Below are positions 9,719-51,578 of a stretch of DNA of 64,000 nt, piece by piece. Within the stretch, counting starts at the first letter, position 1, and the number at the start of each line of letters is the position of its first letter. The stretch spans positions 110,596 through 174,595 of the IMG/VR virus record IMGVR_UViG_3300024520_000049; one strand, given 5' to 3'. Source of the DNA: a virus. A program made the position numbers and the translations under genes. The notes under the pieces were generated by a model that saw only the letters and a program-made list of their open reading frames with translations, had not been told where the DNA came from and ran no database searches.

Positions 9719-9721
9719 CCC

Positions 9722-14006: not shown

Positions 14007-14007
14007 T

Positions 14008-18626: not shown

Positions 18627-18637
18627 GCGGAGTTGGG

Positions 18638-18679: not shown

Positions 18680-18695
18680 AGATATCGGAGGTAGA

Positions 18696-24474: not shown

Positions 24475-24605
24475 CTTCGCGTGGCGCAATTGGAAGACGC
24501 CTCACCCGCAAGGTGAGCTGGGCCGAGGTGTGCCCAGGAACGAGAGTTCAAAGGGGGTTCGATTCCCCTACATGATTGCGGGTTCGAGCCCCGCCGCGAA
24601 GACCA
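24475..24605 (+). ncRNA. tRNA-like RNA (131 nt) with four internal hairpins replacing the anticodon/variable arms
   Basis: Acceptor CTTCGCG/CGCGAAG-A-CCA, D-region TGGCGCAATTGGAAGACGC, T-arm GCGGG-TTCGAGC-CCCGC. Confidence 0.75.
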
Positions 24606-32984: not shown

Positions 32985-33941
32985 ATGAGACCTTGCGAAC
33001 ATTGCGGTGAGCCACTGGAGGAGGGGAGTCATACTAGCAAGAAGTGTCATAAAGAGTGCGCGCGGGAGAGGAAGAACGACCTTCGGCGTGCTAGACGTAG
33101 CGACCCAGAGAAGCGGGAGAGGGAGCTCGCCCGACGACGCATCGCCAACCTAACACCCGAGCAGCGGGAGAGGAAGAACGCCAGGCAACGCATCGCCAAC
33201 ATGACCCCCGAGCAGCGGGAGAGGAAGAACGCTCATCATCGCGCCCGGCGCGCCAACCTCACCCCAGAGCAGAGGGAGAGCAAGAATGCCCTCACCCGTG
33301 TCGCCAATATGACACCAGAGCAGCGGGAGAGGACCCGTGTCGCCAACCTCACCCCAGAGCAGCTGGAGAAGAAGAGAGCCCACAACCGCGTCGCCAACAT
33401 GACGCCAGAGCAGGTGGAGAAGAGGAACGCCCGCAAACGCATCGCCAACATGCCGCCAGAGCAGCGAGAGAGGAAGAACGCCCGCAAACGCATCGCCAAC
33501 ATGCCGCCAGAGCAGAGGGAGAGGACGAGGGCACGCGCCCGTGTCGCCAACATGACACCAGAGCAGCTGGAGAAGAAGAGAGCCCGCAACGCCAACCCAA
33601 CCTCAGAGCAGCGGGAGAAGAAGAACGCCCGCGCCCGTGTCGCCAACATGACACCAGAGCAGCAGGAGAAGGAGAGAGCTCGTCGTCGGCAGCGCATCGC
33701 CAACCTCACCCCAGAGCAGCGAGAGAGGAAGAACGCCCTCACCCGCATCGCCAACATGACGCCAGAGCAGGTGGAGAAGAGGAACGCTAGCAAACGCGTC
33801 GCCAACCGAACACCCGAGCAGCGGGAGAAGCAGAGGGCCAGCAACTGCAAATGCCGAGCTAACCGGCAACAAACAAACGAGTACTTTGAGATTCTTGGCC
33901 TCATTGAGGCTCTTCCAGACCTAATCAACGAAACAATATAA
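32985..33941 (+). CDS. Zn-finger + ANxTPEQ tandem-repeat protein, copy 1 (318 aa)
   Basis: MRPCEHCG..HKEC head, ~15 basic repeats, constant tail QQTNEYFEILGLIEALPDLINET; SD AAGGAGG. Confidence 0.85.
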   Translation: MRPCEHCGEPLEEGSHTSKKCHKECARERKNDLRRARRSDPEKRERELARRRIANLTPEQRERKNARQRIANMTPEQRERKNAHHRARRANLTPEQRESKNALTRVANMTPEQRERTRVANLTPEQLEKKRAHNRVANMTPEQVEKRNARKRIANMPPEQRERKNARKRIANMPPEQRERTRARARVANMTPEQLEKKRARNANPTSEQREKKNARARVANMTPEQQEKERARRRQRIANLTPEQRERKNALTRIANMTPEQVEKRNASKRVANRTPEQREKQRASNCKCRANRQQTNEYFEILGLIEALPDLINETI

Positions 33942-33950
33942 GGAGGAATC

Positions 33951-34625
33951 ATGAGACCTTGTAAGCATTGCGGCGAGCCTCTGGAAGAGGGGAGCTGCCA
34001 CCGGACGAAGTATCATAAAGAGTGCGCGCGAGAGAGGAGGAGGGCCCGCTCCCGCATCGCCAACATGACACCAGAGCAGGTGGAGAAGAAGAGGGTCGGG
34101 AACCGCATCGCCAACTTCACCCCTGAGCAGCGGGAGAAGATCAACGCCCGCCGCCGGCGCGCCAATCTCACCCCAGAGCAGTGGGAGGCGGAGAATTCCA
34201 GGCAGGCCCGCAACCGCGCCAACATGACCCCAGAGCAGCGGGCGAAGCGGAACGCCTACCAACGCGGACGGCGAGCCAACCGCACACCAGAGCAGCGAGA
34301 GGAGTGGAACGCCTACAAACGCCAACACACCGCCAACCTCACCCCAGAGCAGCGGGAGAGCAAGAACGCCCGCTCCCGCATCGCCAACATGACACCAGAG
34401 CAGGTGGAGAAGCAGAGGGCCGGGAACCGCCGCGCCAATCTCACCCCAGAGCAGTGGGAGAAGCGGTTGGCCCCCCAACGCGTCGCCAACATGACACCAG
34501 AGCAGGTGGCGGAGAGGAGGGCCTGCCAAAGTGCCCGCCAACGCGAACAACAACAAACAAACGAATACTTCGAGATTCTTGGCCTCATTGAGGCCCTTCC
34601 AGATCTAATCAACGAAACAGTATAA
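33951..34625 (+). CDS. Zn-finger + ANxTPEQ tandem-repeat protein, copy 2 (224 aa)
   Basis: Same head and tail, ~9 repeats. Confidence 0.85.
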   Translation: MRPCKHCGEPLEEGSCHRTKYHKECARERRRARSRIANMTPEQVEKKRVGNRIANFTPEQREKINARRRRANLTPEQWEAENSRQARNRANMTPEQRAKRNAYQRGRRANRTPEQREEWNAYKRQHTANLTPEQRESKNARSRIANMTPEQVEKQRAGNRRANLTPEQWEKRLAPQRVANMTPEQVAERRACQSARQREQQQTNEYFEILGLIEALPDLINETV

Positions 34626-34634
34626 GGAGGAATC

Positions 34635-35294
34635 ATGAGACCCTGTAAGCATTGCGGCGAGCCTTTGGAGGAGGGGCGTGGCTACCGCGCGCAATATCAT
34701 AAGGAGTGTCAGCGCGAGAGGAGGAGCCGCCACCACCGCATCGCCAACCTCACCCCCGAGCAGCGGGAGAAGCGGAACGCTAAACAGCGCATTGCCAACA
34801 TGACCCCAGATCAGGTGGAGAAGCAGAGGGCCTATGATCGCGGACGACGCCAAACCCGCACCCCAGAGCAGGTGGAGAAGGACAGAGACCGCTGCCGCAT
34901 CGCCAACATGACCCCAGAGCAGGTGGATAAGCGGAACACCCGCCACCGCGACAACATGACACCAGAGCAGCGGGAGAGGAAGAACGCCCGCTACCGCGTC
35001 GCCAACCTCACCCCAGAGCAGCGGGAGAAGGAGAGAGCCCGCAAACGCATCGCCAACCTCACCCCAGAGCAGCTAGAGAAGAACAGAGCCCGCGCCCGTC
35101 GCGCCAACATGACCCCAGAGCAGGTGGAGAGGGTAAGGGCCCAGGCCCGTCGCGCCAACATGACCCCAGAGCAGGTGGAGAGGAGGAGAGCCTACGCCCA
35201 GGACCTCCGCCACGAACAGCAACAAACAAACGAGTACTTTGAGATTCTTGGCCTCATTGAGGCCCTTCCAGATCTAATCAACGAAACAGTATAA
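34635..35294 (+). CDS. Zn-finger + ANxTPEQ tandem-repeat protein, copy 3 (219 aa)
   Basis: Same head and tail, ~9 repeats. Confidence 0.85.
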   Translation: MRPCKHCGEPLEEGRGYRAQYHKECQRERRSRHHRIANLTPEQREKRNAKQRIANMTPDQVEKQRAYDRGRRQTRTPEQVEKDRDRCRIANMTPEQVDKRNTRHRDNMTPEQRERKNARYRVANLTPEQREKERARKRIANLTPEQLEKNRARARRANMTPEQVERVRAQARRANMTPEQVERRRAYAQDLRHEQQQTNEYFEILGLIEALPDLINETV

Positions 35295-35566: not shown

Positions 35567-36271
35567 ATGACTATCTCCGCAGAAAACAACGAAGAAAACA
35601 ACGAACCCAAGCAGCAGAAAATCGAGCTGACAGACGAACAGTGCAAGAAGATCCTCGCCAGGGCCATCGCCCGTATGAAGGCAATGTCAGGCGACTGGAA
35701 ATCCATCTCCGAGGACTTTGTTGAGCTCATCGACGGCCGTACTGACGGTAGGGATTACATCCGCAGCCGCCTCCCCGGCCTTTCGCTACATAGCCTAAAC
35801 CTCTTTGAGAAGGTAGGTCGAGGAAGCTTGGACCCCCGCCTCGGCCCCAGCGCGATGATCCACAAGCCCCACATGCTGCGGAACCTCTCAATCGCTGACC
35901 AGCTTAAGACTCTTGACGAGAAGCTGTCTCTTGCGATACTCGGCGTCGATCCCGGCAACTTCCGGCTGGTGCGCTGGTCAGATGAGCTTTCGTTAAGCCA
36001 ACGCAAGCAGCTGGTAAGCCACTCGGCGCTCCGGACGGTAGCAGAGCAGATCCTGTACCTGGAGGCTCTCCGCACCAACCGCCGCTTGAAGAGCGCAGAC
36101 AAAGAGACAGCTGATTATTTCGTGAAGCCTAACGGCGTCGTGGTCTTCACAACGAAGAAAGAGGAGCATGAATGGGAACCAGAGGACCTGCTGCAGCTGG
36201 CGACTAACGCCGTGAAGCGTGCCAGGGAGTGGGACAACAAGAGGAAGGGCAAAGGTACGTCAAAGCCGTGA
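35567..36271 (+). CDS. hypothetical protein
   Basis: 234-aa ORF after an A-rich spacer. Confidence 0.7.
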   Translation: MTISAENNEENNEPKQQKIELTDEQCKKILARAIARMKAMSGDWKSISEDFVELIDGRTDGRDYIRSRLPGLSLHSLNLFEKVGRGSLDPRLGPSAMIHKPHMLRNLSIADQLKTLDEKLSLAILGVDPGNFRLVRWSDELSLSQRKQLVSHSALRTVAEQILYLEALRTNRRLKSADKETADYFVKPNGVVVFTTKKEEHEWEPEDLLQLATNAVKRAREWDNKRKGKGTSKP

Positions 36272-36740
36272 AGCTCGGCTCAGTGAGGGTCATCGTATAC
36301 CTCAACCCGTTCGCTACCGTGAAGAGTCAAGTGTTCAAACAGCCTTGGGAGAAGGCGAACTACACTCTTCGGCAGCTGAACGTGGGTGTGAGGAACGTAC
36401 GGAATCACGTCCACGCCGAAGTGTACAGGGCGCGGGCGGGCATATGAAATCCGTTAAACAAATCATAAAGCACAACAGACTAGGCGTGGCCCATAAGGTA
36501 CTGTACGGCTCAGGCAAGTACACACAGGTCCGTGGGCGCATGCTGCTAGGGCAGCCATTGGGCATGTTTGGCCGCATGCTCATGCTTGTAGACCACCAAA
36601 TAGAAGAAGACCTAGGAGGAAGGAGAAGATGAAGATCAAGAAGGCACAACCCCGCGTCTGGGGTGTGCTTACGGACGCGGGTGGCAGAACGCCTGCGACA
36701 AGCGACAACAAGAACCACACGAGTAAGGAAGAAGACGAAA

Positions 36741-37862
36741 ATGACTGATGCTATAAATGACCAAATGTCCGATGATCTTGGCGGCGCCAAACCATCGACT
36801 ACACCAAACGCGCTGGCTGACGCTGCGGCAAAGCCTACCAAAGCAAAAAATAAGAAGATCGAATCGTTGACGCCTGAGCAGGAGGCGGCGATACCTGAGT
36901 TCCGTGATCGCTGGATTGCGATTGGACTGCAGACTCGCAAGTACGACAAGACCATGGTGCCAGAGCTGATGGCTCGCATCTACAAAGAGGGCGGGCTCGA
37001 GCCGCCCCAGCACATCCTGCATCTGACGTCACCAATGGCGGCCAATGCGCTCATCAACCTGCTGCAGGACAACGAAGACCACCCCATGAAAGAGGCCGAT
37101 GTCTCTTTGACCACGGTTGAAGGCTACGGCGCCGACGGGGCCACCTCGTTCGACATTCGCTCAATGACAGTTGACGATAAGACGCCGGACCTGCGGGCAC
37201 TGTGCAAGGACAAAACCCTGGACACAGTACACAATGGGGCTGCCTGCTACGGTGCTCACGACGCGGCCTGGCTGGGCTTCTACGAGTTCTGGATGGAGGC
37301 CGGCATTGAGGAATGCAAGCAGCTGCTTCCGCTCATGGACGCGGCCAAAGCCGCTGTGGGCTGGTTCTACCCGTTCGAGGAGGCTTGTATCGTCACACCG
37401 CTGCCTACTGAGCTGCACCGTGATGATGAAGGTCGCTTGCACAACACAGAAGGTGCTGCTCTGATCTTTGATGATGGCTGGGGCGTATGGAGCGTCAACG
37501 GCGTGCGTGTGCCGCGCAAGATCATCGAAGAGAAGGACAAGATCACTGCTCAGGACATCCTCGATGAGGAGAATGCAGAGATCCGCCGTGTTATGATGGA
37601 GTTCCTCGGCACAGAGAAGTTCATCCAGGAGTCTGGTGCCCGCTTGGTGCACAAGGACGATTGGGGGGAGCTCTACGAGAAGGAGCTTGAGGACGACGAA
37701 CCTCTCTGTATGGTGAAGGTGGTGAACAGCACACCTGAGCCAGACGGGCATTATAAGGATTACTGGATTCGGGTACGTCCGGGGTGTGAGACGGCACATG
37801 ACGCTGTTGCCTCTACCTTCCACCGGACGGCTGAAACCTACGATCCTTCCGTAGAAACCTGA
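36741..37862 (+). CDS. DUF6745 domain protein
   Basis: YGAHDAAWLGFYEF, GWFYP, GRLHNTEGAAL..DGWGVW.VNGVRVP, ENAEIRRVMME, VNSTPEPDG..Y.IRV..AHDAVASTF..YDPSVET. Confidence 0.85.
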   Translation: MTDAINDQMSDDLGGAKPSTTPNALADAAAKPTKAKNKKIESLTPEQEAAIPEFRDRWIAIGLQTRKYDKTMVPELMARIYKEGGLEPPQHILHLTSPMAANALINLLQDNEDHPMKEADVSLTTVEGYGADGATSFDIRSMTVDDKTPDLRALCKDKTLDTVHNGAACYGAHDAAWLGFYEFWMEAGIEECKQLLPLMDAAKAAVGWFYPFEEACIVTPLPTELHRDDEGRLHNTEGAALIFDDGWGVWSVNGVRVPRKIIEEKDKITAQDILDEENAEIRRVMMEFLGTEKFIQESGARLVHKDDWGELYEKELEDDEPLCMVKVVNSTPEPDGHYKDYWIRVRPGCETAHDAVASTFHRTAETYDPSVET

Positions 37863-37869
37863 TATAACT

Positions 37870-37908
37870 GCTATCCCAGGGCCGCTGCAATGGTGGTCCT
37901 GGGATAGC
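37870..37908 (+). terminator. strong stem-loop after the DUF6745 gene
   Basis: GCTATCCCAGGGCCGC...GTGGTCCTGGGATAGC; no clear U-tract, so it may be a processing or stability element instead. Confidence 0.5.
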
Positions 37909-37922
37909 GATTTGGAGATTAT

Positions 37923-40900
37923 ATGCAGTTAATTCGACGAAGAGTAGAAGTGAAGGAGCGTGCCATCCAGAGATCGTCGGCCAGGATCTCAGAGGAGCAT
38001 GTGTATAAGGATTCGACCTGCGACGTCTTGCGGGCGTACCATATAAAACTTTACGAGGCGCTACACGCGGAAGCTCCAGCGCAGGCAGTTGATCCAAGAT
38101 CTTCTGCGACTGTGCTCCAACTGTCCGACCAATTACAGGACGATGCATGAAGAACGCTGTTATACATGCAGTGGTTATCACCCCAGGCGGGAGATCAGCC
38201 ACGATTATTGTGAGCCACCACGACCAATTCTGGGTGGGGCATGCGCAGAGACGAGAGCAGGAACGACAACTACTGGAGGCGCAATCTTATGAGGTTAAAG
38301 CAGCAAGTCACGCCCAAGGTTAACCAGCGAATGTACGCCAGCGACCTGGCGATCAATGGACTTTTTACACTGGAACTGTGGTCGAATCTCATTCACCCCG
38401 ACCGCCATCGCGAGGCGATACATGAGGAACTATACGATGAAGCTCGGACCGACAATGAAGTATGAGGTGTATCGGCAGGTCCAGGAAGGAGCCGCTGTCT
38501 GCGCACCCCCAGACCTGTTGTCTGGAGGACCGCACCCAGCCACGATGCGCCCCGGCGCTGTCTCAAGATATCTCCACCCGATCGCCAATCATGCCCATGA
38601 AATTGCGCACCAGCTGGGCGCGGAGCTATGGGACGGGGAGGTGCTGTTACGAGGTTGGGGCCGACTCGCCGAGACCACATCAAGGCAACTACCCGCCAGG
38701 GCTACGATTTAATCCCACGCACCAACAACGGTCACATTCACAGCATGCCGATCGGCAGCGTGGAGCTGATGGCGCAGGGACAGATTGACGGGATGATCTA
38801 TGAGATAGAGGACAAACTGCAGGAAGACGTAACAGGGAGGAGGGCAAATCTATGGCGATGAGATTAGGATACACGAGTGAGCGCGGCCGTATACAAGAGG
38901 ATCCCCGCCACCGCGTCTCGATGGCGTGCCACCAGGCGGATAGGCGTCTACTTAATGGTGCCTCTTTGGCGCCCCTCTTCTCCATACTGCTGCAGGATGT
39001 GCGGGATGCTGCTAGAGATCAGCTGCTTATCGATGTCGCGCCAAAGCCCAGGGACTGGAACGGGCAGGTGCTCCTGTGAAGTTGGGAGAGTCCGCAGGGA
39101 AGACAATAACGCAGCTGTGCTTTGACTCGCCCGCCAGCAACGCCGTCATCATGCACGATGCTGCCACGGTGGATAGGTGGAGAAGGTTGGCATTCCCAGC
39201 ACCACTGTTCCACCCAATCACAAATAGCCAAAGCGGCCAACTAGAGGAGGACGCCAAATGAAGATAGAGACAGACAAGTTTATACGTCAGCGCCTCCGCC
39301 TCTATGCGGAGTTGCGCAAGAACGTGATAGCGCCGTATGGCTTTGCGGTGTTCAACGAGGTCGCTACCGAGTTCGGCGCTTTCCGCACCCCAGGTACACA
39401 ACCATTAAGACAATTGCTCCACCAGCTAGTTTGGGAGGGTATGTAATGAGATTAACCTGCCCACAGAAGGGCCTGATCGATCGCAACCTTAAGGACCATA
39501 TTTTCAGCGGGATAATAATAGGGGCGGGGCCGCTGTTCACGAGGAAAACGAACCCGCAGCGATTCTTCGATTCAACGGGCGGCCGTCACGTAGGGGACGT
39601 TATCGCTACCGAGATCCGCCGCCGAAACTAAAGGATTAAAACTAATGCAAATCAAGGCTGTGCCCACCTCGGAGCTCCGCAACCGCTCACTGCGCGCCGA
39701 GGATTATCTACACGCAGCAAAGCGTGCGAAGATGGGGCGGTACATTGCTCGGCTGGAGGCGCAAAGAGATAACATAAACAAGAAGCGGCGATCGATTTTC
39801 GACTGCTGCTGGAGGTGACAGGTGAAGGTTAGCCATATGGATATGTGCCAGCACGAGGTGCGGGACTGTAAGATGATAGCCGCCCACACAGCTATTAGAG
39901 CCGCGCGCCCAAGCCAGTACAGCCGAGAGCTTCTGCTGGTTCGGGATGACCTTCACCCCCAGCTTAATGCGGTAATGGACCAAATCGAGGAGGACGCATG
40001 AAGGTTGAAAGATCAATACGCAAACACCTCGGACACGCGGGGCTAAACGCCCGTGTAGGCGCAATCGCCGTTGACGCTGCCCAGAAGAAGTACTCCCCGC
40101 AACCCCCAGGCCTTCTGATACTGGCGCTAACGATTGAGCAAGAGGTAAGGCGAGGGATTAAAGATGAAGGTTAAACATGTAAACCAGTGTCGCCACAAGG
40201 TTTGGCACCCTGTAGAGGGGTTAGCACGCTTCGCTATCAGAGGTCGCGTCAGCAACCAAAGCTATACCAAGCTGGTGGTGGAGCTCATCCAGGAGGTGTT
40301 ATCTCCTGACCTAATACGAATAGTCGCCGATCAACTCGAGGAGGATGCCCGTGAAGTGTAAGCTAGGCAGCTCAGTACAGCGTGCAGCCAGCCAGGCCTC
40401 GTCGGTCACCCACATTACTTACCCACACTTTGAGGGCCTGGACGAGGAGCTCTGGTGGTTAACCTTGGCAAGACTTGTCAACAACCACAAGGATGGGATG
40501 ATAACCCGAACACCTGAGCAGCTACGCCTACGCGCCCAGCTGACGGATGACTGGAGGCGGTACCCATGCCAGCTATCTCACGCCTATGGGTTTCTTCCAG
40601 ATCACGGGTAAGTCAACAAGGGCATAACGCTGCCCACCGGGCCGTGGACCGCGCCGTCGCCGACGAGGCCTGGGAGAAAGTCTCCAAAGGCATCCCCCAC
40701 GTTACTGCCGACAACCGCGAAGACATTCGCAAAGCGCTGACGGATGACTGGAGGCGGTACCCATGACAACCATTTCACGCCGATGGCTGCCTGTCAAAGT
40801 ATGGGTAGACAGCCATAACCGCAACGGCCTTCAGGAGCGCGTAGCCATCGCTGTAGCCGAAAGCTCCTGGATAGCCGCTGCCGAAGGTATTGCTATGCGC

Positions 40901-43196
40901 GGGATCGGGCACACCATCGCGGCTAATCGCCACGAGGCGCTGGCGCAGATGGGGGCGGATTGGGGTCACGCGGAGGACTGGGAATGAAGCTGGGCGATCA
41001 GGCGACGACGACCTACGGCCCCTCCTCAGAAGTTTATGTTGCGGTACGAGCCAGTTGGGGGCCGACCCTCAAGACGAGCCCTGGCCTGTTACTGAGTCTT
41101 GTCATAGGAACCAACCTCATAAATGAGGTGCAGCACGCCATCCTCGATGACACACACCTGGAGGACACATGAAGTTGAGTGAGACTGTTACAAAAGCTGG
41201 ACGCAAGCTGAACCACTCAGTGCATTACTCGGTACACGTTGAGGTCACCCATAAGCCTAATCGGTGTACACGCCACCACGATCTGCGAGATCACTACGCA
41301 GAGCTCGCGTTGCATAATGTGGTCGTATGGCGCGGTGTGCGTGAGCAATTAAAGGAGGACACATGAAGTTGAACAGCGTGATGCTCGAGCTCGGCCGACC
41401 CGAGGTGAAGCTCAGGCGCAAATTAGTAGGTGGCCAGATCGACCTGCTGGCTGATCACGAACTGTGGAGCCTGGATGAGATAGAGACCATCATATGGGCG
41501 ATAATGGAAGAATCGACCTACTACTACGACAAGCACCCCATCTGGGCGGAGGAGGACCAGCCATGAGAATAGCTAAAGAGAAAAGCGGGCTTCTCCGCAG
41601 TTGTGCCCGATCCCGTGCACGCCAAGGCGTGCACCGGGCGGTAAAACACACGATCGATACACCATCCCTAGTCGTGAGAGTCTGGTCCGGGGATGGCTTG
41701 TCTCGCCAGCCGCTCCTGCGCCAGATACGCGATGACGTTGTTGCTGACTACCCGCGTCTTCGCCGCATCAGCGGCGGGGGGAACTCAGTATGAAGCTGAA
41801 ACCAGTAATACGCGAGGACATCCGCAGAATCCGCCCCGCCAATGACGCGGTACCCCGGGTAAAACGGAGACCACCATGGACGAGGCAGGCAGCGGTGCTG
41901 AAGTATATAGGCAGTACCGAGAGCTCCAGGTACGCAGTGATGGCTGAGGTCTGCATCGATATAAAGAGGGATAGCCTATGAAGTTGAAATCAGCGAAGCT
42001 CGGGGGCGGCTTGCGGCTTCGCTCCTCCAGTCACATCTGGGTACGTACGAAGCCGATCGGCCCGACGCAGTGGTGGCGCGTAAAGGACAGGCTGATGCAT
42101 AGCGAGCCCTGGCCAAGCACCTTCCATGCTGTAGAGCTGGTGCTTGACGCAGCGATCGGCCAGATGTGGGCCGACGCCGAGGAGGACGCATGAAGCTGAA
42201 ATCAGTGAAGCTTGATGCGGGGAAGCAGCTCCGCAGCTTCTACGTGGGCGGCACACCACACAACGTGCCGGAGGAACTTTGGCAGTCCTGGCAGCATACA
42301 CGAACCCATCTCGCTCAGGTTATCATAATGGGGCCGGGAGGGCAGCCATACCATATGATGAACAACCAGATGTGGGTAGACTGGAAGGGGGATGCATGGC
42401 AATGAAGCTGATATCAGTGGTGCAAAGGGTGAACTATGGTGCCATACGCAATGTCCCAGACCTAGAAGAGGACCTTACACTAATTACGCAAACACGCGGA
42501 GAGTTCATGCCCCCAGCGGCTCTGCGTATCGCCCTGCAATCCCGCAATGGGGTGTGGGACCAGATGCGAGCGGATTGCTGGGGGTGGGAGATACGATCAT
42601 GAAGCCGATACCTGTAAAAACAAGAGTTAGCGGAGGCCAGATGAAAGCGAAACTCAGATACCCCTTGCGCAGAGATGTACCCAGGTCAGCAATACGCGAA
42701 GCATTTGTCCGCCACCCAAGCGCCTGCTTAGTTGTGCACGTGTCCAATGCGGTGGCTACTCAGGTGTTCGTCGACACCTGGACGTGGCTATGACGTCTGC
42801 ACGATGTAAAGTCGGGCTGCACTGGCTCGGCACCAAAGCTGAGAAGGCCATGCCTCGTAACGCCGTTGAACTGTGGATCCTGGCCCGCAGAAAGACAGGA
42901 GTCGATCAGCAACGAGCACTGGTGCTGCCTGATCCGGTGCTCGGCCAACTACACGACGACTGGAAGAAGGACACACCCCCATGAAGGTAACAAGGAGCAC
43001 ATCCAGGCGCAGAGCGGTCAACTGCCCGTTCCAGGCTCTGGGCATCAGCTCTCAGGCCAAGGACCTGGTGGATGAGGATTTATGGTGGCTCGTCAAGTAC
43101 AAGCTACAGCCAGGCCCGTGGGTTGGCGTAAGCCGAGAAGGAGACAGTATCAAGACGGAAATCGAGCTTGATAGTCATAAAAATTCACCTATATAG
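37923..43196 (+). repeat. main tandem micro-gene array (~27 coupled ORFs of ~58-90 aa)
   Basis: Starts at 37923, 38147, 38289, 38437, 38628, 38858, 39076, 39258, 39446, 39645, 39822, 39998, 40164, 40351, 40566, 40763, 40984, 41169, 41363, 41563, 41790, 41978, 42190, 42402, 42599, 42790, 42981; recurring junction GAGGAC-N2-3-ATGAAG. Confidence 0.8.
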
Positions 43197-43314
43197 GTGC
43201 AAGAAATGCAGGTGGGGAGAAATAGGAGGACCCCCCTCAGGTAGTGGTAATAGTTAAAAAGTGGGTCTAGATTAGAGGCCTCAACAACACAAACAAACGG
43301 ACAAGGAGAAGAGA

Positions 43315-43656
43315 ATGGCGAAACAGAAGATCTACCGTCAAGGCGACGTGCTCGTCGTTGCACTGGACGAATTCCCTAAGGGAGTTGACAGCAGCAAGAT
43401 GAAGAAGTACAACCACGCCGATCAGCTGGTGCTTGCCTATGGCGAGACCACTGGCCACCACCACACCGTGGTAGGTAACAGCAAGGTGGCCGAAGCGCTC
43501 AAGGAAGAGTACGGAGAAGACATCTTCTTCGAGCTGGATAAGCCCAGCGCACTCACCCATGATGAGCATGACACCGTGGAACTTCCAGCAGGGAAGTACC
43601 AGAAGGTGCAACAGCAGGAGTACTCTCCTGACGCATACCGGGACGTGCGCGACTAA
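43315..43656 (+). CDS. conserved His-rich 'RQGD' protein (usual DUF6745 neighbour)
   Basis: YRQGDVL..VLAYGETTGHHH..LTHDEH..LPAGKY..QQEYSP..RDVRD; SD AAGGAG. Confidence 0.85.
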   Translation: MAKQKIYRQGDVLVVALDEFPKGVDSSKMKKYNHADQLVLAYGETTGHHHTVVGNSKVAEALKEEYGEDIFFELDKPSALTHDEHDTVELPAGKYQKVQQQEYSPDAYRDVRD

Positions 43657-43674
43657 GTTTCTCGCCAGACCCGT

Positions 43675-43716
43675 GGGCCAGCAACCATTCTTCAGGTTGC
43701 TGGCCCTTTTTATTTT
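43675..43716 (+). terminator. intrinsic terminator
   Basis: GGGCCAGCAACC-ATTCTTCA-GGTTGCTGGCCC-TTTTTATTTT. Confidence 0.85.
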
Positions 43717-43793
43717 CAGCAGGGTATATGTGAGCATTTAGCCTGTGAAACCTACTTAAACGATAACATGTAAACACTTAGCGAGGAGGGCAT

Positions 43794-43997
43794 ATGAAGC
43801 CACGAGGATACAAAGAACAGACGGGTATCCCCTGCTGCGCCAACTGCGTGTTCGGAGGATACCTGGGCGCCCAGGAGCAGCCAGAGCGCATGGCCATCTG
43901 TGAGGTCATGGGCGAGTGTGAGTCCGGAGCCTACTCGGATATCGCCGTCGAGCCGCTGGGCATTTGCGACGCCTGGAACAGCAGAGCTGGCACATGA
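43794..43997 (+). CDS. small Cys-rich protein
   Basis: CCANCVF..C..GICDAW; SD GAGGAGG. Confidence 0.6.
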   Translation: MKPRGYKEQTGIPCCANCVFGGYLGAQEQPERMAICEVMGECESGAYSDIAVEPLGICDAWNSRAGT

Positions 43998-45707
43998 AGC
44001 TGGGTGAGCGTATGCCCGGCGCCCTCTTCGAGGTAGACCAGAAACTCCAGGAGCTATCTGCCACCCGCAGCATCAAGCGCTATGTGGCTGAGGCTATAGA
44101 CGGTACAGGCGACGAGGCTCTTGAGGACGAGTACTGGAGCATCTCATTAGCGATCGATTTCATTGAGGATCAGATAGAGGAGGACATATGCAACTAAAGA
44201 GTGTTGTCGAGCAGGTGAGCAGCACCAAGAGCTTCCCAGCGCTGTCTGATCACGTAGACACAGGCCCACGGGTAGTGGTGATCGCGAGTATGGGTAACGG
44301 TGGTTGGGATGTAGCGAGGGAGACACGCGCAGAGATCTCCCGCCAGGTGCGGAAGGAGGACATATGAAGCTGGGCTACGCAGTCTTCGCACAGGTTCGCC
44401 ATAAGCTCAGCAACGCCGCTTGCGATTGCCTACTGCAGGAAGGCATGGCGATCGATATGGCTAATGAGTGGAGAGCGCCACGGGCAGGGACGACCATCAC
44501 AGAGAATCACATCGAGGACCAACTAGCGGAGGATGCATGAATAGCGTTATTAAACAGGTAACGGGGCAAGTCATCCCTGCGGGCATCCCGGAGATGATCT
44601 CTATGTATGTGGAGACGCAGCTCGTCGAGGAGCTTGCTGAGCCGGTTCAAGCCGCCACCCTCTTCACTGCGGAGATCGCTACTGAGGTAATTCTTAAGCA
44701 ACGCGGCACGTGGGGCTGGCACGCATGAAGCTGGGAGACATGCAGCTTTTCGGCGGGGTGTGCAAGCTCCGCCCTGCGCCTAGCGACTTCCTAGATAGCC
44801 AGGTGTGCCCTGTCCCATGGGCAACCACGATCAGGGCTATGCGCATCAAAGTATGGCGCGCCCACACACCGTTCCGCGAGGCAGAAGCTGATCAACTGCG
44901 GGAGGACGTATGAAGCTTAGCAATCATGTCTCGGTGCAGGTCCGCCAAGAGCGTAGCACGGGTGCTTGCGAGACCCTCCTTCAACGCAGTAGCGCGGTAA
45001 CTATGACGAGTAAGTGGGCCGCCCGGCGGACGTTCACCGCTACCATAGAGAGACACATCAATGACCAACTGAAGGAGGACACATGAAGCTGATTAGCACA
45101 CGGCGCCGCAGTGATAAGAAGTTAGAGCTCTATATGAAGCCACGCATCTATACGCAGCTAGGGCATCGGGCATGGTCGAAGGTTCTCGCTACCATACCCG
45201 ATGGCTGCCCCTCTCATCGAATAAGGAGAGATGCTCAAGTACACCACGGGACCCGTGATAGGCCGAACAACACACTCAAACGACAGCTGGAGGCGGACAT
45301 GCTATGAAGATAGGAGCACCAGCACGGAAGGCTATCAAGTCAACCATCTGTCGCGGGCTGTGGACGACCGCCAAACTGAGCGTTTACCATAAAGGGAAGA
45401 CGGGCACGCTGGCACTGGGCCCGATGAGCGATGATCCCGCGACCGCCTTGTTGCAGGCAGTCTTGAGCGCCCCAATCCTGCAGCTAGAGGAGGATGTATG
45501 AAGATGATGTCCGTTAACCAGCCAGTCAGGTACAATCTGGCCCACAGGGTGTACGAAGACACCTCACAGCATATACCCTGGGGAGGGTCAACACCCGCAT
45601 TCTCCCCAGTACCAGCACTCAGCCAAGCACTTGGCTGGATATCTGAGGGGATTAGACATGAGTTCAAATATAAAGGAAAGGATAATGAGAGCAGAAAGCA
45701 CAAGTAA
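43994..45707 (+). repeat. micro-gene array, second block (9 ORFs)
   Basis: Starts 43994, 44188, 44364, 44537, 44725, 44910, 45083, 45304, 45498; ends DQIEED, DQLAED, DQLRED, DQLKED, LQLEED. Confidence 0.8.
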
Positions 45708-46125
45708 ATGGACTTACCTCGGTGAGCCCGGTGGCCGTGGAGGCCATCATGACGACCAGCTGCGGTTCGCCCGCAACAATGAGAGCGGAGAGCTGTATCT
45801 CTTCGACCGCAGCGGGGAGAACCCCGACCTTACAGACGACGCGCCCTGCCGGGTGCTGATACACAAGCCCATCACAATCGCATCTGGCGCCGGCAAAGGT
45901 AGCAAAGAGATCCACTGCCGCGTGTCGGTTATGGTAGAGGATCCAGAGCCCGGGATCTATGCAATGCCCATTCACTACGAAGCTGCCATGTGGCTGCACG
46001 AGACCCACGAGACACGGATCCTGCCAGCGGAAGGCGACAAGCGCATCCTGCGTATGCTTCGCCTCTTCCAGCTGGTATCGGTGCCGCTCACGCCTGAGGA
46101 GGAGGGTATCTTTGATGAAGACTAA
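45685..46125 (+). CDS. hypothetical protein
   Basis: ORF interrupting the array. Confidence 0.6.
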   Translation: MRAESTSKWTYLGEPGGRGGHHDDQLRFARNNESGELYLFDRSGENPDLTDDAPCRVLIHKPITIASGAGKGSKEIHCRVSVMVEDPEPGIYAMPIHYEAAMWLHETHETRILPAEGDKRILRMLRLFQLVSVPLTPEEEGIFDED

Positions 46126-46338
46126 CCCGATAGATAAACAAAAGGCAGCCAATCGCCGGCATAAGCGCCGGCTAAGAGAGTCTGCAGAAGTCACCGCCCG
46201 CGCGACTGCATCTGCTGAAGTCACTGCCCGCCTGATGCAGCTGCTGGCCAACAAAGGCCTGGTAACGGCTGAGGAGATCGTGCAGGTAGCGAATGGCCAG
46301 TCTCCTAAGGAGCTGGGCTACTCCGACTGCGGGCTAGT

Positions 46339-47402
46339 ATGACCAGCGTGAAATATGAAGTGCTCCGCCAGGTGATGGACTCAGTGTGGGCCCAGGTGAT
46401 AGCCCCGGCAGACTGCCTTGTGGTAGCCCGGCTACGCCAGCAAGCGCAGCCGAAGGTGCAGCTGCGAGTTCGAGCTCAGGTGAGCGGCGCAGTGTGGGAG
46501 CAACTAGAGGAGGACGCCCATGAAGCTGGCTAGCGCGCGAGAACGGGTAGATGACCTGGTGTTGGACCGAGTGCACTTGACCATGTGTGCACAGGTAGTC
46601 TGCCTTATCGGACACCCGGCGTGGCCGCAGGCGGACGCTCTGGTGAGCCATGCTCTGCTGCGCCGGCTGGAGGATCAATTAAAGGAGGATCACGATGACT
46701 AACGTATCAGTTAGAGTTGACGAGCGAGTGAGCACACAGCTTTACGCCCGCTCACGGAGACACGTGAATTCCTACGTTCGCCTGCAGCCCCGGGATGCTG
46801 TGCACTGGCAGACCTTCGTCGAAGTACACCCCCGCTTGCGGGTCAGCGTGTGGGGCCAGGTGTGGGACCAACTGGATGAGGACATCGATGATTAACGTAT
46901 CAGCTGAAGTACAGCTTCGAGTTCGTGAGCAGCACTGGAGCTCAGTACACCTCCAGGCGTGGCGCGGCACGTGGGATCGTGTGCACCGCCAAGTGGAAGA
47001 TCAGGTGTATACCTCACTTCATACCCAGGTGGCATTCCACGTTGAGCGCCAACTCGGGAATCAACTAACGGAGGACATCGATGATTAACGTATCAGCTGA
47101 AGTGTACGATCGAGTACGACGACAGCGGTGGGCCTCCACGCATCGTCAAGCGTGGTGTCACACGTGGGGGCGTGTGCATCACCGCGTGGAGGATAAGGTG
47201 TACCGCGCTATTGCTGCGGATGTGCATCTTCAGGTGCAGGATCGAATGTGGGACCAACTAGAGGAGGACGCTGATGATTAGCAAAGATACTTACGTCCGC
47301 GGCCAGGTGCATAATCTAGTGTGGGCTATAGCAGCCCACCACGTAGCTAAGGCTACACATACTTCGGTGGAGGACCAAGTGATTGACCAGATGCAAGGGT
47401 AG
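46339..47402 (+). repeat. micro-gene array, third block (6 ORFs, Trp/Gln/Val-rich)
   Basis: Starts 46339, 46520, 46695, 46888, 47081, 47274; ends WEQLEED, WDQLDED, WDQLEED. Confidence 0.8.
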
Positions 47403-47457
47403 AGTAGGTAAGAGTACCAAGGATTAGTGAGACCAGACCAACACACGAAGGACGAAA

Positions 47458-47661
47458 ATGATTGAGAAGTTCGGACACGCGATCACGAACTCAGCAGACA
47501 CCCGTGTCGCAGTCAAGATGATTGCGGAGCAGCACGTGATGGAGGATTGCGGCTTCATCCCCACCATTCAGGACTGGACTACCCCGATGGGCAAGACCCC
47601 TGAGAGCTGGATGCTGCGCGTGCACACAACCACAGTACTAGCGTTGGAGGTAGAAGAATGA
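47458..47661 (+). pseudogene. DUF6915-like protein, C-terminal half only
   Basis: FGHAITNS..VAVKMIAEQHVMEDCGFIPTIQDW matches the second half of DUF6915 as I recall it; the His-rich N-half is absent. Confidence 0.5.
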
Positions 47662-48083
47662 CTATACAGCCATTAAGTAAAGAGATACACCAGATGGCGC
47701 TGGACATGGGCGTCCTACAGCTGCGGCTGCAATTCTCTGGGGGTAGTGACGAGGGTTTTCTGAACGTAGAGTCCGCACCGTGGCTGTATCACTCGGTGTG
47801 CCGCACCTGCCGGAGGGCGGGCCAAAAGTCTGATCGTGGCTATGTTTGCATACATTGTGATGAGGTTATTAGCTACCCGCACAAACCACGAGACTTCTAC
47901 GAAGCTGTGGAGGAGTGGGCCTGGAAGGTATACTCCTATGGCGGCGCTGGCGCCGGTGAGGACTATGGTGATGACATCACCTATAACCTGGAGAATAAGA
48001 CAATGGAGCATCAGCGCTGGACGGAGGGGCGCGTCTACCACGACGAGACAGAGGAGAAGCTGGAGGTAGCGGATGCTGATTAG
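47658..48083 (+). CDS. DUF6878-like hypothetical protein with inserted Zn ribbon
   Basis: LQFSGGSDEG, CRTC..CIHC, YSYGGAGAGEDYGDDITYNL. Confidence 0.55.
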   Translation: MTIQPLSKEIHQMALDMGVLQLRLQFSGGSDEGFLNVESAPWLYHSVCRTCRRAGQKSDRGYVCIHCDEVISYPHKPRDFYEAVEEWAWKVYSYGGAGAGEDYGDDITYNLENKTMEHQRWTEGRVYHDETEEKLEVADAD

Positions 48084-48300
48084 CGAAGACACCTACGTAC
48101 GAGCCCAGGTGAACAACACACCCTGGGCTCGGGCGAGCTGGCACGCTCGCACTGGCACCGCTAGCACTGTTTGCCATCATGTGGAGCTCCAGCTGCAGGA
48201 CCAGGCTGCGCAGATATATGCGCTACGTGATACAATCCGTGAACGCGTGCAGGACCAAATAGAAGAGGATCAACTAAAGGAGAACGAAGATGGCGATTGA
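48073..48300 (+). CDS. micro-gene array member
   Basis: MLISEDTYVRAQV...QDQIEED; paralog of the 47274 ORF. Confidence 0.65.
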   Translation: MLISEDTYVRAQVNNTPWARASWHARTGTASTVCHHVELQLQDQAAQIYALRDTIRERVQDQIEEDQLKENEDGD

Positions 48301-48557
48301 ACCAGTAGACGTTGACCGATGCCAGGGGGAGAGCAGGCCCGGGGCGTTCGCCCTCGGCCCGAACACCTTCCGCCGTTGCGGCCGCCTCCCCACAGCCATT
48401 GTGCTTGAGCGCGAGGATGGCGAGGACGGCCACAAGGGCAGCATGTCCCTCTGCGAGCACTGCCTGCCTATTATGCAGGACATGACGAATGTGCCGGTGG
48501 ACGTGATCCACATCAAGGAGCGGGGGGTTAGTGAAGTGTTAAAGAAGGAGAAGAACA

Positions 48558-48971
48558 GTGGATGAGAAATTAGAAGAAGCGAAGAAGACTGAGCTCCACT
48601 CGTGGGCGCAGACGCTGGTCATGGACTTCCAGCGCCTCGCTGAGATGGGGATGAATTACCTGGCTCTGGGCTTCGGTGATCCGAAGACGGGCGAGGAGTA
48701 CGAGGTGATCGTACAGCGCAAGAGCGGGCGCACCCCTGCGGACAAGGTCACAGCGCTACAGGCTGAGGTTGACCGGCTACAGCAGGGATTGGAAGGCGCG
48801 ATCAACAGGCTTGAGACGATACGCGAGACAGAGTCGAGATTCATGCTGGACCGGGACATTGAGAGCTACAAGGCAGCTTTGTGCCCCACGCATCTCTCCG
48901 CTGCAGGCGAGTGCGCCTACATGCACGTACCCGACAAGCACTGCGTGAAGTGCGGCAAGGTCGGTCTCTGA
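48558..48971 (+). CDS. hypothetical protein (coiled coil + Cys tail)
   Basis: SD AAGGAG. Confidence 0.55.
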   Translation: MDEKLEEAKKTELHSWAQTLVMDFQRLAEMGMNYLALGFGDPKTGEEYEVIVQRKSGRTPADKVTALQAEVDRLQQGLEGAINRLETIRETESRFMLDRDIESYKAALCPTHLSAAGECAYMHVPDKHCVKCGKVGL

Positions 48972-49651
48972 TGAGCAAAGCTAAGGACTACCGCAGTGCG
49001 AATCTGGCCAAGCACTGCGGCAATTGTGTCTTCCACCTATGGGAGGAGGACAAGGCTGTGTGCCAGAACCCGGCGTTCCTGGCGGTTGAAGACGCAGCAC
49101 GGACAGCTGTGGGCATGGGCTGGCATGAGGAGGACATGCGCGCTAAGGCTGCTGACTATGTGCTGGAGGACTTCTTCACAGACTCAGACTGGCAGGAGTA
49201 TCACGCTATCTGCGATGATTGGGCTGGTAAGAGTGAGCACCTCGTGATGAGCCACAGCTTGGAGCTCTGGGAGGAGAGCTTCTACGAAGCGCTCGACGTT
49301 GAGGCCGCCAGGCCTGACCCAACAGAGGTCATCAGAGAGCCATGCGACGATCCGGACTGCCAAGCCTGCAAAGTAGCTACCGTGCTGCATACACCACAAA
49401 CGGCTGAGGCTGAGCAGTGCTGTGACCCGGGCTGCCACGCCTGCAAGGCGGAGCATGAGGCGCGACTGCTTAAGCAGCAGCTGTCTGACGTCAACAAGAA
49501 GGGCTATGAAGAAGGGCGTGCGGCAGTGATAGCGGAGCTCCGAGAGCTGTACCACCACTGGGCTCTTGTTGCGGAAGGTGCTCCCCACAAGGAGTACATT
49601 GCGGCGCACCAGTATATCAAAGACGTGAAGCAGATAACAGGAGACAGCTGA
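48971..49651 (+). CDS. Cys-rich hypothetical protein
   Basis: HCGNCVF..ICDDW, like the 43794 ORF; duplicated C.DP.C.ACK motif. Confidence 0.6.
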   Translation: MSKAKDYRSANLAKHCGNCVFHLWEEDKAVCQNPAFLAVEDAARTAVGMGWHEEDMRAKAADYVLEDFFTDSDWQEYHAICDDWAGKSEHLVMSHSLELWEESFYEALDVEAARPDPTEVIREPCDDPDCQACKVATVLHTPQTAEAEQCCDPGCHACKAEHEARLLKQQLSDVNKKGYEEGRAAVIAELRELYHHWALVAEGAPHKEYIAAHQYIKDVKQITGDS

Positions 49652-50903
49652 TGGTTGGTATGTTCGGCATAGTGGCAGTAATCCTGATGTTCCCACGCGC
49701 CCTCTCAGAAAATCGCTGGACCTGGCGTGTGGCTGGTGAGTTCCTGGTCCTTCTTGTGCTGACCGTGCTCTCTATCCTGTGCCTTGTCACCTCGGCGAGC
49801 AAGGGCGGCACATCATGAGCCGGCCGCTGGAGTGGGATGTAATCGACTGGGAGAGAAGCGGGCCTGCCCATACCGCCAACTCCACGGTCCACGATGACGG
49901 CCGGCCGTTCCGGTACCGCGTAACAAAGCAGGGTAAGGAGTTCTCCGTAGGGCATTCAGACCACGAGCTGCTCTCTGACCCGGTGGATCCGTTCCCGGAT
50001 CTTGCTCAGGCTTACTGCCAGAATAACGAGTACATGCTGGTGAGATCCTTGGAGGATGACTACAAACGCAAAGAAGGAGGTGGATGATATGCCCGATTTA
50101 GGGCCACTTATCAAGGGCTTAGAAACGGTAATAAAAGCCAAGTACGACCTGATGTGCGAGACCTGCGGTAGAATGACAAAGGCTCGCGAGATGATCGGCA
50201 AGCACGAGCAGGCCACCTGTCTGGTGTGTCAAGGAATATGTCCTGACTGCGAGCAGTACGGAGAGGATAGCGAACGCGGGCTAGTTTGCCTGGAGTGTGA
50301 TAAAGTGTGGGAGGCAGAACCATGAGCACGACAACCAACAGCGTGCGCCTAAGAGACAACACCAGCGCGGCTATCAATGACTACGAGATCTGGCTGCTCC
50401 AGTGGAGCGACTACTGTGCAATGCTACAAAGGAGGGCAAGATGATAATACAACGAACCATATCTGTAATGCTGCTATTGCTGATGTTGCACTACCTCGCC
50501 ACCGATAAGGAGTTGATCGCGGCCGTGCTATTGCTGTGTTCGCTCATGTCCGAGGCGCTTGCTGAGCTGAAAGGCGCACGTGACGACGCGCGGGACCCGT
50601 GAAGTGCCCAATCTGTAAGGAGCCCATAGTCAAGAAGAGTATGCTGCCAGCAGAGGCGTACAGCTTCATGCGGGACCTGGGCCTGAACGCCTTCCCTGGC
50701 GCCTTCCTCAGCCGTAAGTGCTGCAACTACTGTGTCGGGGCGATGCGTGCCGGCATGACATTGGAGTGTTTGCGCAGAGAGAGTATACGTAGCAGGCAAT
50801 CAGACGCTGCTGCAGTGGACAATCAGACGGATGCTGAAAAAGCACCGCCACACCTAAAAAAGTGCGTACAACCAGACTGACGGTCGAATAAAGGAGGATA
50901 GAC

Positions 50904-51578
50904 GTGACAAAAAAAGAAGCGCAAGAAGGTGTCGACGCGCGTCTGCGACTGTCTGCAATGAAGACCCGGCACCGATTGAAATTGTCGTGGAACTTTGACA
51001 GCGAACTCGTCCTAGCCTCCCGCTGGCCCCGACGACTGCCGAGAGATCCCTGGGGGGCTGGCTACATGCGCCGAGTACCGGGCCCACGGTGGATGCACAC
51101 GGGGCCAGTGAGGTTCCATCTCTACGATTCGGCGACAGCGGGTAACCGACTGTATGACGCTCAAGCGTTTTACTACGCGTGGAGGATCACGGAAGAGGAG
51201 CGCGCCAGGGTTCTGCAGCGCTACAAATCGGCTGGCGACAGCCTGCCCTGGGGGACGGCCCCAACCTGGGGCTCGATGGACCTGTGCGCACGTTGCGGGG
51301 AGGACTACCATAACTCGACCCGGGGTCATGTGTGCCTCAACCCGCTCCCGGCTTGGGAGCATCTAGTTGAAGATCTGAGGGAAGCCAGCCCCGGCAGGCA
51401 CTACACGACTTTGGTCTGCCGCTGCCCCTTCCACACCGAGAAGCGCCGTTCCTTCCGCATCGACCCTCACATGTACCGGTTCGGCTGCACTAAATGCTAT
51501 CACCCTGGCGGGAAGCTAAGCGATCTGGCGTCCCGCATAGAGGAGGTACGAAATGGCGTCAATAGCGCCGATGATTAA
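50904..51578 (+). CDS. protein with C-terminal CHC2 (primase-type) zinc finger
   Basis: CRCPFHTEKRRSFRI...FGCTKC..PGG. Confidence 0.7.
   Translation: MTKKEAQEGVDARLRLSAMKTRHRLKLSWNFDSELVLASRWPRRLPRDPWGAGYMRRVPGPRWMHTGPVRFHLYDSATAGNRLYDAQAFYYAWRITEEERARVLQRYKSAGDSLPWGTAPTWGSMDLCARCGEDYHNSTRGHVCLNPLPAWEHLVEDLREASPGRHYTTLVCRCPFHTEKRRSFRIDPHMYRFGCTKCYHPGGKLSDLASRIEEVRNGVNSADD

Follow-up and report, generated by a model that had tools for sequence, protein, structure and literature searches.

Among published phage loci, the nearest repeat-spacer layout with coding spacers is, as far as its description goes, that of the promoter-early stem-loop (PeSL) cassettes in the hyperplastic regions of T4-type phages. 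These cassettes are described as intergenic sigma-70 promoters together with terminator stem-loops (PMC2839356, Arbiol et al. 2010); the same account places many small ORFan genes between short conserved repeats that include the Shine-Dalgarno (SD) sequence and the start codon, and proposes the PeSL segments as recombination substrates for modular shuffling (PMC2839356). A second point of reference is the protein gp54 of mycobacteriophage Tweety (with Che8 gp57 and PMC gp51), which is reported to have unique N- and C-terminal regions around 15-48 tetrapeptide repeats (PMC2884959). Changes in the repeat number of gp54 are reported to "tune" the overcoming of the Phrann gp29/gp30 defence (PMC9262239), and gp54 is, judged by these accounts, the only studied phage tetrapeptide-tract protein with a known role that we found. 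Here we analysed a stretch of 64,000 nucleotides (nt), called the window below, which covers bases 110,596-174,595 of the 190,498-bp phage record IMGVR_UViG_3300024520_000049 of IMG/VR. At positions 37923-47402 of the window, a row of very small genes follows a gene for a DUF6745 protein, and this protein lacks the tetrad-repeat tract of its aligned relatives. We consider the row to be probably a strongly diverged, detached tetrad-repeat mini-gene array.

The array is a real row of 42 mini-genes with normal coding statistics. A dynamic-programming gene chain combined with a scan for ATGA overlaps gave 45 consecutive head-to-tail open reading frames (ORFs) on the + strand, 42 of them small (42-86 amino acids, aa) and three larger (113, 146 and 75 aa), in agreement with the about 42 small ORFs of the original prediction. 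The start-to-start distance has a median of 193.5 nt (interquartile range 185-213). The predicted period of about 190-200 bp was recovered by 7-mer autocorrelation, in which shared 7-mers peaked at lags of 193 (40 pairs), 197 (31) and 194 (18), and the lag bin 184-195 held 68 pairs, compared with 9 in an equally long control. The guanine plus cytosine (GC) fraction at codon positions 1/2/3 was 0.62/0.42/0.64 in the small ORFs versus 0.60/0.43/0.635 in 50 large genes, and by codon score the annotated frame came first in 38 of the 42.

The DUF6745 gene at 36741-37862 scored 203.4 bits against PF20530 (cut-off 27). The array begins 61 nt downstream of it, and three more mini-ORFs lie just upstream. 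All 14 aligned relatives of its product carry an (x-Q-V-x)n tract, in place of which the phage's own DUF6745 has a non-repeat linker of about 50 residues. The same tetrads occur in the array itself: its core units, which open with M-(I/T)-(S/N)-V, are composed of x-Q-V-x tetrads. In a word-based search, a profile of the core units returned almost exclusively the phage's own proteins, together with two N-terminal fragments; in these, QVxDQV repeats come after a domain that resembles the one encoded by 36741-37862. When the core-unit profile was run exhaustively with HMMER against 1.84 billion representatives, 533 proteins were matched at E<=1e-3, and the best of these were proteins of 350-600 aa that were matched in their middle. 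DUF6745 was detected at E<=1e-3 in 12 of 15 tested matches, in 10 of them above the Pfam cut-off (P0017, P0067 and P0094 being those without it). The order within the matched proteins is an N-terminal domain, the (D/N)QV(W/R)n repeats and then DUF6745. A sequence search of the PDB with the DUF6745 protein gave a best E value of 0.58, and a literature search on DUF6745 or PF20530 found no paper; a search on the repeats gave one, on the passage of nucleic acids through nanopores, which was judged unrelated.

The same layout was found in other phages. IMG/VR was queried with a 116-aa protein of another source, which consists of two fused units; 29 loci were returned, and all their ORFs were translated and scanned with a core hidden Markov model (HMM) and with HMMs of both DUF6745 domains. 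Mini-genes, 1-36 per locus, are carried by 21 of the 29 loci, which include three duplicate or near-duplicate pairs (L019/L020, L030/L031 and L011/L022). A DUF6745 gene lies within the retrieved stretch of 13 of these 21 array loci and is repeat-less in all 13 (0-4 Q[VIL]); the remaining eight are mostly short or end-cut stretches. Conversely, mini-genes are missing from five loci (L005-L009) whose DUF6745 bears repeats (30-46 Q[VIL]), while three (L012, L028 and L032) could be placed in neither group. The sole match in 185,579 species genomes (L035), a metagenome-assembled bacterium of the candidate phyla radiation, likewise has a repeat-bearing DUF6745 without mini-genes. In the loci compared, the DUF6745 gene adjoins the array (e.g. 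L010, L011, L013, L014, L016 and L018), and the unit spacing in four other arrays was 180-232 nt. The original prediction knew of no described system with this layout; the layout is not unique, because numerous contigs of other phages show similar arrays next to a repeat-less DUF6745 gene. The link with DUF6745 formed no part of that prediction.

One of these contigs, L013, comes from a record of 368,758 bases with direct terminal repeats, a jumbo phage, which holds 71 core-profile matches over about 337-357 kb (about 20 kb). The present array, though long, is therefore surpassed by this one. The fetched 13 kb of L013 contain at least 36 mini-genes, which start with MNN(K/L)LIN and end in QLE(S/L)HE. 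This array starts 19 nt behind a 224-aa ORF, itself beginning at the edge of the fetched stretch, which has a C-terminal DUF6745 domain and no tetrad tract.

A third component of the cassette is the 113-aa protein encoded at 43315-43656, which carries the motif GETTGHHH...EYSPD..R.V.D and is called the His-motif protein here. Its homologs were found as 18 ORFs in 17 fetched loci, and in the loci compared they adjoin the DUF6745 gene (e.g. L005, L010, L011 and L018). The same pair is present in the cultured Microcystis phage Ma-LMM01 (L004), in which the His-motif homolog gp175 adjoins the DUF6745 gene gp174.

As originally predicted, the middles of the units are hard to align: BLASTP among the ORFs gave one family of nine plus a few pairs. 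Smith-Waterman alignment of the middles, with 10 residues cut from each end, showed a weak excess (mean 19.33 vs 18.47 in shuffles, standard deviation of the means 0.126), while the scores of the termini lay far above those of shuffles. Part of the head and tail motifs is imposed by the SD sequence and the ATGA overlap. In a leave-one-out HMM test with 40 decoys per unit, each keeping the first five and last eight residues fixed, 15 of the 37 non-core units beat all 40 decoys and 31 of the 37 beat the decoy mean. Single-linkage clustering of the 62 small ORFs of the window (Smith-Waterman z>=5; about two false links expected in 1,891 pairs) gave one cluster of 29, of which 17 are array members, as well as a cluster of four, one pair and 27 singletons. 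Some units with the MKL head align with core units over their full length (42402-46339, z 9.0; 46520-53907, z 6.8; 40164-46339, z 6.6).

A further HMM, referred to as the external HMM, was built solely from 123 mini-proteins of other phages. It recognised the five core units of the array, and 11 of the 37 non-core units scored 2.0-11 bits, above 50 of 50 shuffles. Genome-wide, 14 ORFs passed at E<=0.01, all of them in the window and on the + strand. The original estimate of about 60 units in the window fits a count by motif, which takes in 29998-32154, 36268-36748, 48073, 53735-55253 and 62254-64052, whereas the external HMM passes only the 14 ORFs. In the 37 non-core units, hydrophobic residues are repeated at lag 4 (z 3.1) and lag 8 (z 3.4), with negative values at lags 3 and 7. 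Ordinary amphipathic helices would give hydrophobic lags of 3 and 7. For the 26 units without HMM signal, taken as a group, lag 8 alone stands out, and weakly (z 2.7). When all tests are tallied, direct tests connect 20 of the 42 small ORFs with the family and one step connects three more; 19 have no link. Judged from these comparisons, the MKL...DQLEED units would be a strongly diverged part of the tetrad-unit family. The predicted paralog family is thus borne out for the cluster of 29 and for the units that beat their decoys, but not for the 19 ORFs without a link.

Several observations weigh against deriving the whole array from detached tetrad repeats. Only five of the 42 small ORFs reach genome-wide significance with the external HMM, 26 of the 37 non-core units are not lifted above shuffles by it, and the 19 unlinked units share at most a head or tail motif with the family. 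A profile of the MKL units, searched by words against 5.8 billion clusters, gave four matches, all from this phage. AlphaFold2 predicted two helices of low confidence for the MKL unit 44364, with a predicted local distance difference test (pLDDT) score of 57. Compared with the large genes of the phage, the small ORFs are richer in R, Q, W and H and poorer in F, G and Y, and their codon score is lower (0.084 vs 0.149 per codon); both features are compatible with weak constraint. Ma-LMM01 has a repeat-less DUF6745, yet no core-profile match was found across its whole genome. The pairing of repeat-less DUF6745 with mini-genes is therefore not obligatory, and a strict rule by which the former implies the latter is ruled out. 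Moreover, co-transcription of the DUF6745 gene and the array is uncertain because an 18-bp hairpin lies between them.

Some of these points would suit an alternative in which two things stand side by side, namely true tetrad mini-genes (14 in the window) and an unrelated, lineage-specific MKL family, whose common heads and tails arose by gene conversion of junction segments or as selected coupling signals. The small number of units passing the external HMM, the MKL profile without matches outside the present phage and the poorly predicted MKL fold, which is not a single helix, all speak for it, and a nucleotide-level constraint on the junctions could homogenise heads and tails without common ancestry of the bodies. 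Nevertheless, we regard this alternative as unlikely, given that the three MKL-core alignments are full-length, that the leave-one-out signal remains with the termini fixed, and that the non-core units show the period-4 hydrophobic pattern and have an equal unit length. Searches beyond the family added little: Pfam and PHROGs gave nothing above cut-off for 46 small proteins, PADLOC gave no meaningful match for eight proteins, and tblastn of a core unit against cultured phages gave chance matches only (E 0.4).

Along the row, each stop codon overlaps the next start or directly adjoins it. Of 44 junctions, 25 are -4 (ATGA) overlaps, four are -8 and three are -11, and 30 of the 94 coupled junctions elsewhere in the genome are of the -4 type. 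Between 43994 and 47402, 17 consecutive junctions are joined by overlapping stops and starts only. The predicted heads and tails proved to be enriched: M[KQ][LIVM] opens 24 of the 45 array ORFs versus 8 among 224 other + strand genes, M[ITL][SNI][VSK] opens 5 of 45 versus 10 among the 224, and Q[LIVM]x[EDA]D occurs within the last 16 residues of 20 of 45 versus 6 of 224. Around the 45 starts, only three parts carry high information content: -12..-7 (GGAGGA), the ATG itself and +3..+9 (A-AG-nTnA), where position +3 is fixed because the overlapping TGA forces it. GGAGGA, supplied by the tail codons, is the sole strongly conserved block 5' of the next ATG. The tail E-E-D is therefore the SD sequence of the next gene, as had been predicted along with the ATGA coupling, while the preceding D-Q-L is not part of it.

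The likeness of the junctions had been named beforehand as a point on which the prediction could fail. They are more alike than the 94 coupled junctions elsewhere, both in the SD block (identity 0.366 vs 0.302) and at +3..+14 (0.386 vs 0.292); outside these parts, identity equals the control and random values (0.254). Codon choice in the tail motif is biased as well, with Gln encoded by CAA in 17 of 25 cases (genome usage 25%, p 9e-6) and Leu by CTA in 8 of 17 (genome usage 7.5%, p 1e-5). Hence the junction is constrained at the nucleotide level too. Arrays of other phages share heads and tails at this level: MKLKSV is encoded by ATGAAACTCAAATCAGTC in L014 and by ATGAAGCTGAAATCAGTG here, and the tail with its overlap reads GGATCAACTAAAAGAAGAC...ATGAATAGT in L011 (38% GC) and GGACCAACTAGAGGAGGAC..ATGATTAGC here. 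A search of IMG/VR with the exact junction pattern returned one locus only, L003, which was dismissed as a chance match because the genes there are ordinary.

These junctions also bear on the simplest alternative, in which the array is a run of small early genes of ordinary type, unrelated to one another and alike only through the SD tail, the codon 2 forced by ATGA and a general preference for Lys at that codon. In its favour, the information at the junctions is limited to about -12..+10, with identity beyond equal to control and random values, and 27 of the 62 small ORFs are singletons. Against it stand the narrow length distribution with its 193-nt period, the paralog clusters, the matches of the external HMM, the DQL part of the tail, which is not imposed by the SD sequence and yet is shared with a 38%-GC phage, and the repeat-less DUF6745 alongside, as in 13 other loci. 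We hold this alternative to be very unlikely; as far as sequence comparison can tell, the clusters, the HMM matches, the locus survey and the common tails have already largely refuted it.

The original prediction further described the array as hypervariable and reshuffled by recombination, and neither point was borne out by the data. Nine close paralog pairs gave ratios of non-synonymous to synonymous substitution (dN/dS) of 0.20-0.89 at dS values of 0.46-3.2, and dS was saturated in one further pair; dN/dS was 0.2-0.5 in most pairs and 0.73-0.89 in two. In some pairs the synonymous difference is lower at the ends (for 46888/47081, 0.16 in the N-terminal 10 codons vs 0.61 in the middle), which fits junction constraint or gene conversion. 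The array is present in eight seawater metagenome runs. In contigs from four runs (2018-2019) covering 37000-48500, from which rare variants are dropped and whose cover is patchy in three of the four runs, 52 of 61 pieces were at least 99% identical; there were 10 single-base rows and, outside the array, two one-base deletions, and joints were absent. The resulting picture, drawn from sequence data, is that of an old, slowly turning-over set of paralogs that does not appear to be currently hypervariable.

An actively reshuffled cassette library, which recombines at junction repeats and varies within the population, would predict some of what was seen. Direct repeats of the region are located almost exclusively at the junctions; two tandem duplications, at 40539/40736 (197 nt) and at 46.7-47.3 kb (193 nt), are younger; unit 40351 is a mosaic with a head common to 42981 and a tail common to 40566; and the array-specific heads and tails of other phages suggest concerted evolution. 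Such a library is nevertheless most improbable in view of the near-identical contigs without joints over 11.5 kb, the high dS even between closest paralogs and a genome without reverse transcriptase (PF00078 gave no match in the whole 190,498-bp record). The latter result also rules out the array as a target of a diversity-generating retroelement. As a separate observation, public assemblies are interrupted exactly where the two youngest tandem duplications lie (40539-40765 and 46881-47100), and depth at the second is about double. Short-read assemblers therefore collapse units, and unit counts may be underestimated.

A further alternative would be that a former tetrad array drifts neutrally and most MKL units are useless leftovers. 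The shifted amino-acid composition, the lower codon score and the low-confidence fold agree with decay, as do the two pairs with high dN/dS and one frameshifted unit. In the latter, a tetrad-type unit at 54833-55074, the head MISAKQQLWSEALETGC-stop lies in one frame and the tail ...VWAKVWEQVRDQTWDQLWDLRAHAWDQLEEDVNE... in another. A copy in decay, a mistake in the assembly or a programmed shift could account for this. Decay as a general explanation is highly improbable, since 42 consecutive open frames retain an intact start, SD sequence and overlap, GC by codon position is as in large genes, dN/dS is 0.2-0.5 in most pairs, and compact phage genomes usually shed useless DNA.

Structure prediction gave a clear result for the core of the family. 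With the family alignment, AlphaFold2 modelled unit 47081 as a single helix of residues 2-65 (pLDDT 95). The predicted helical nature of the small proteins is thus supported for the core members. An ESM Atlas search with unit 43994 found no structural match (best score 0.77). A predicted complex of the DUF6745 protein with unit 47081 reached a median of 0.28 (mark 0.32) without controls, and has no weight either way.

Taking the array as a diverged set of detached tetrad-repeat genes, its history and working might be pictured as follows. Tetrad units would have given rise to the MKL...DQLEED units by tandem duplication and long divergence, during which the head, the tail and the period-4 hydrophobic pattern were kept while the tetrads decayed. 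Blocks of units would probably be read as long polycistronic RNAs, along which ribosomes would move from gene to gene by termination-reinitiation, and the outcome would be a set of helical proteins of about 60 residues. More tentatively, these helices might cooperate with the repeat-less DUF6745 and the His-motif protein, standing in for the internal spacer helix; by analogy with Tweety gp54, a role in host takeover or counter-defence may be imagined. A bolder version, which we rate as distinctly unlikely, is that the mini-genes form a combinatorial library, in which DUF6745 and its His-motif partner load any of dozens of helices in trans, each of them an individually diverged stand-in for the spacer helix that is fixed between the two DUF6745 domains in other phages. 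If true, one phage would field many differently "tuned" host-takeover or counter-defence machines at once, a protein-level and always-on alternative to the mutational tuning of Tweety gp54.

Few transcription signals stand out in the region. Sigma-70-like promoter sites, the only promoter type scanned for, numbered 5 versus 6.3 in shuffles, and terminator-like sites 13 versus 11.1. The sole strong terminator, at 43675-43706 (-26.6 kcal/mol, z -5.4), lies directly behind the His-motif gene. The hairpin at 37869-37909 is even more stable (-34.2 kcal/mol, z -6.2; none of 200 shuffles as stable) and is not followed by a U-run; possible roles are attenuation, RNA processing or RNA stabilisation.

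The features in and around the array are collected in Table 1.

Table 1. Mini-genes and associated elements of the window, with positions counted from its first base.
Feature	Position	Strand	Remarks
Three coupled mini-ORFs	36268-36748	+	Upstream of DUF6745; gene chain, head and tail motifs
Mini-ORF MKLGSV...	36268-36447	+	Linked to core unit 54664, z 6.1
Mini-ORF MKSVKQ...HQIEEDLGGRRR	36444-36632	+	Member of the upstream trio
Mini-ORF	36629-36748	+	Last of the trio upstream of DUF6745
Repeat-less DUF6745 gene, 373 aa	36741-37862	+	Pfam PF20530, E 3.1e-60
18-bp perfect RNA hairpin	37869-37909	+	Between DUF6745 stop and first mini-gene
Block 1, 26 small ORFs, 57-86 aa	37923-43196	+	Mostly MK(L/V) heads; DQLEED or W-rich tails
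His-motif protein, 113 aa	43315-43656	+	phrog_27831, E 4e-13
Intrinsic terminator ending block 1	43675-43706	+	12-bp stem plus U-run
Block 2a, 10 small ORFs, 58-74 aa	43794-45707	+	MKL/MQL/MN heads in nine
Cys-rich 67-aa ORF	43794-43997	+	First after terminator; unlike the other block 2a units
Two inserted ORFs of other kinds (146, 75 aa)	45685-46125, 46115-46342	+	No family match
Block 2b, 6 small ORFs	46339-47402	+	Five clear tetrad-repeat units and linked unit 46520
Block 2b tetrad units	Starts 46339, 46695, 46888, 47081, 47274	+	External HMM 19-36 bits; 46520, 11 bits
Outlying tetrad-type unit	48073-48300	+	External HMM E 7.2e-5; pairs with 47274, z 14.9
Second cluster, 7 intact mini-ORFs	53735-55253	+	Starts 53735, 53907, 54103, 54284, 54465, 54664, 55071
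Outlying tetrad-type unit	63395-63562	+	External HMM E 1.2e-17

In the second cluster, to which the frameshifted unit at 54833-55074 also belongs, the external HMM recognises six of the seven intact ORFs; the exception, 54284, is linked solely to 54664 (z 6.3). The Cys-rich protein of 43794-43997 reads …GIPCCANCVFGG…CEVMGECE…GICD…; it may bind zinc and looks unrelated to the other units. Right behind the array, a 67-aa ORF at 47458-47661 matches the C-terminal half of Pfam DUF6915 (E 1.3e-14). At 32985-35294 lie three paralogous genes (318, 224 and 219 aa), all ending in ...EALPDLINET(I/V), which are rich in repeats of about 18-50 aa around R-I-A-N-M-T-P-E-Q and weakly match the repeat families STPRs, RPAP1_N and DUF3106. 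Rfam matches of tRNA type were obtained at 23761-23899 and 24475-24602 (139 and 128 nt; 36.2 and 26.6 bits, gathering score 29), while ARAGORN found no tRNA in the window. The length of these matches suggests tRNA genes with insertions.

The source phage is complete by the CheckV estimate (100%), has a GC content of 55% and carries nearly all its genes on the + strand. It encodes a family-A DNA polymerase, a UvsX-like recombinase, a helicase and a thymidylate synthase. Megablast of the array and of window positions 1-20000 against 50,697 phage records gave no match, and the best matches of its DNA polymerase were about 26% identical, without a near relative among those records. In searches of IMG/VR for related loci, the DUF6745 protein gave no match, the 113-aa His-motif protein gave no locus, and the DNA polymerase gave two distant loci at 23% identity. 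Neither the megablast nor the IMG/VR searches yielded a sister genome for a unit-by-unit comparison.

If the array did arise from detached tetrad repeats, an internal low-complexity tract would have been exported as dozens of coupled genes that diverged beyond recognition. This would be a visible route by which small "ORFan" genes of phages originate, and would account for some of the dark matter in large phage genomes. The survey ties DUF6745, the His-motif protein and the mini-proteins into one cassette across many uncultured phages; Ma-LMM01, a cultured carrier of both larger genes, offers a possible experimental entry point, and the stretch 43994-47402 is a natural test bed for termination-reinitiation. 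For annotation, caution is advised, as about half of the units can be placed only by joining weak tests.

Compared with known systems, the array differs from the PeSL regions in several respects. PeSL-like cassettes are ruled out here by the overlapping genes and by sigma-70-like promoter and terminator sites no commoner than in shuffles. The contigs of the present array, which come from four near-identical populations and drop rare variants, show no indel variation within it. Tweety gp54 is likewise a phage protein with a tetrapeptide tract between unique regions, but the resemblance is one of design only: its repeats are Ala-Ala-x-x within one gene, whereas here the repeat units are free-standing in an array. 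Homology was rejected, as gp54 contains no Pfam families and BLASTP against the phage's DUF6745 gave E 13. Closer are the repeat-bearing DUF6745 proteins of phages and prophages (PF20530; phrog_31813), which have the same tetrad motif in mid-protein, the same N- and C-terminal domains and the His-motif neighbour gene in common with the present locus; the tract is internal there, while here it is replaced by dozens of separate ORFs of about 60 aa, mostly without regular tetrads. For the detached-array architecture as such, there is no described counterpart that we found in print. Its closest likenesses are the other arrays of the survey (L010, L011, L013, L014, L021 and L026), which consist of head-to-tail mini-ORFs of 45-130 aa with -4/-8/-14 overlaps, have heads and tails particular to each array, and stand alongside a repeat-less DUF6745 and a His-motif gene. 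The present locus probably belongs with them: it has a row of overlapping mini-ORFs, a head and tail common across the array around a variable body, a repeat-less DUF6745 alongside and a phrog_27831 protein in the cassette. It differs in that nearly all units of the other arrays are regular (xQVx)n runs, whereas here such runs make up five of the 42 (14 in the window) and the other 37 have diverged so far that they are hard to recognise.

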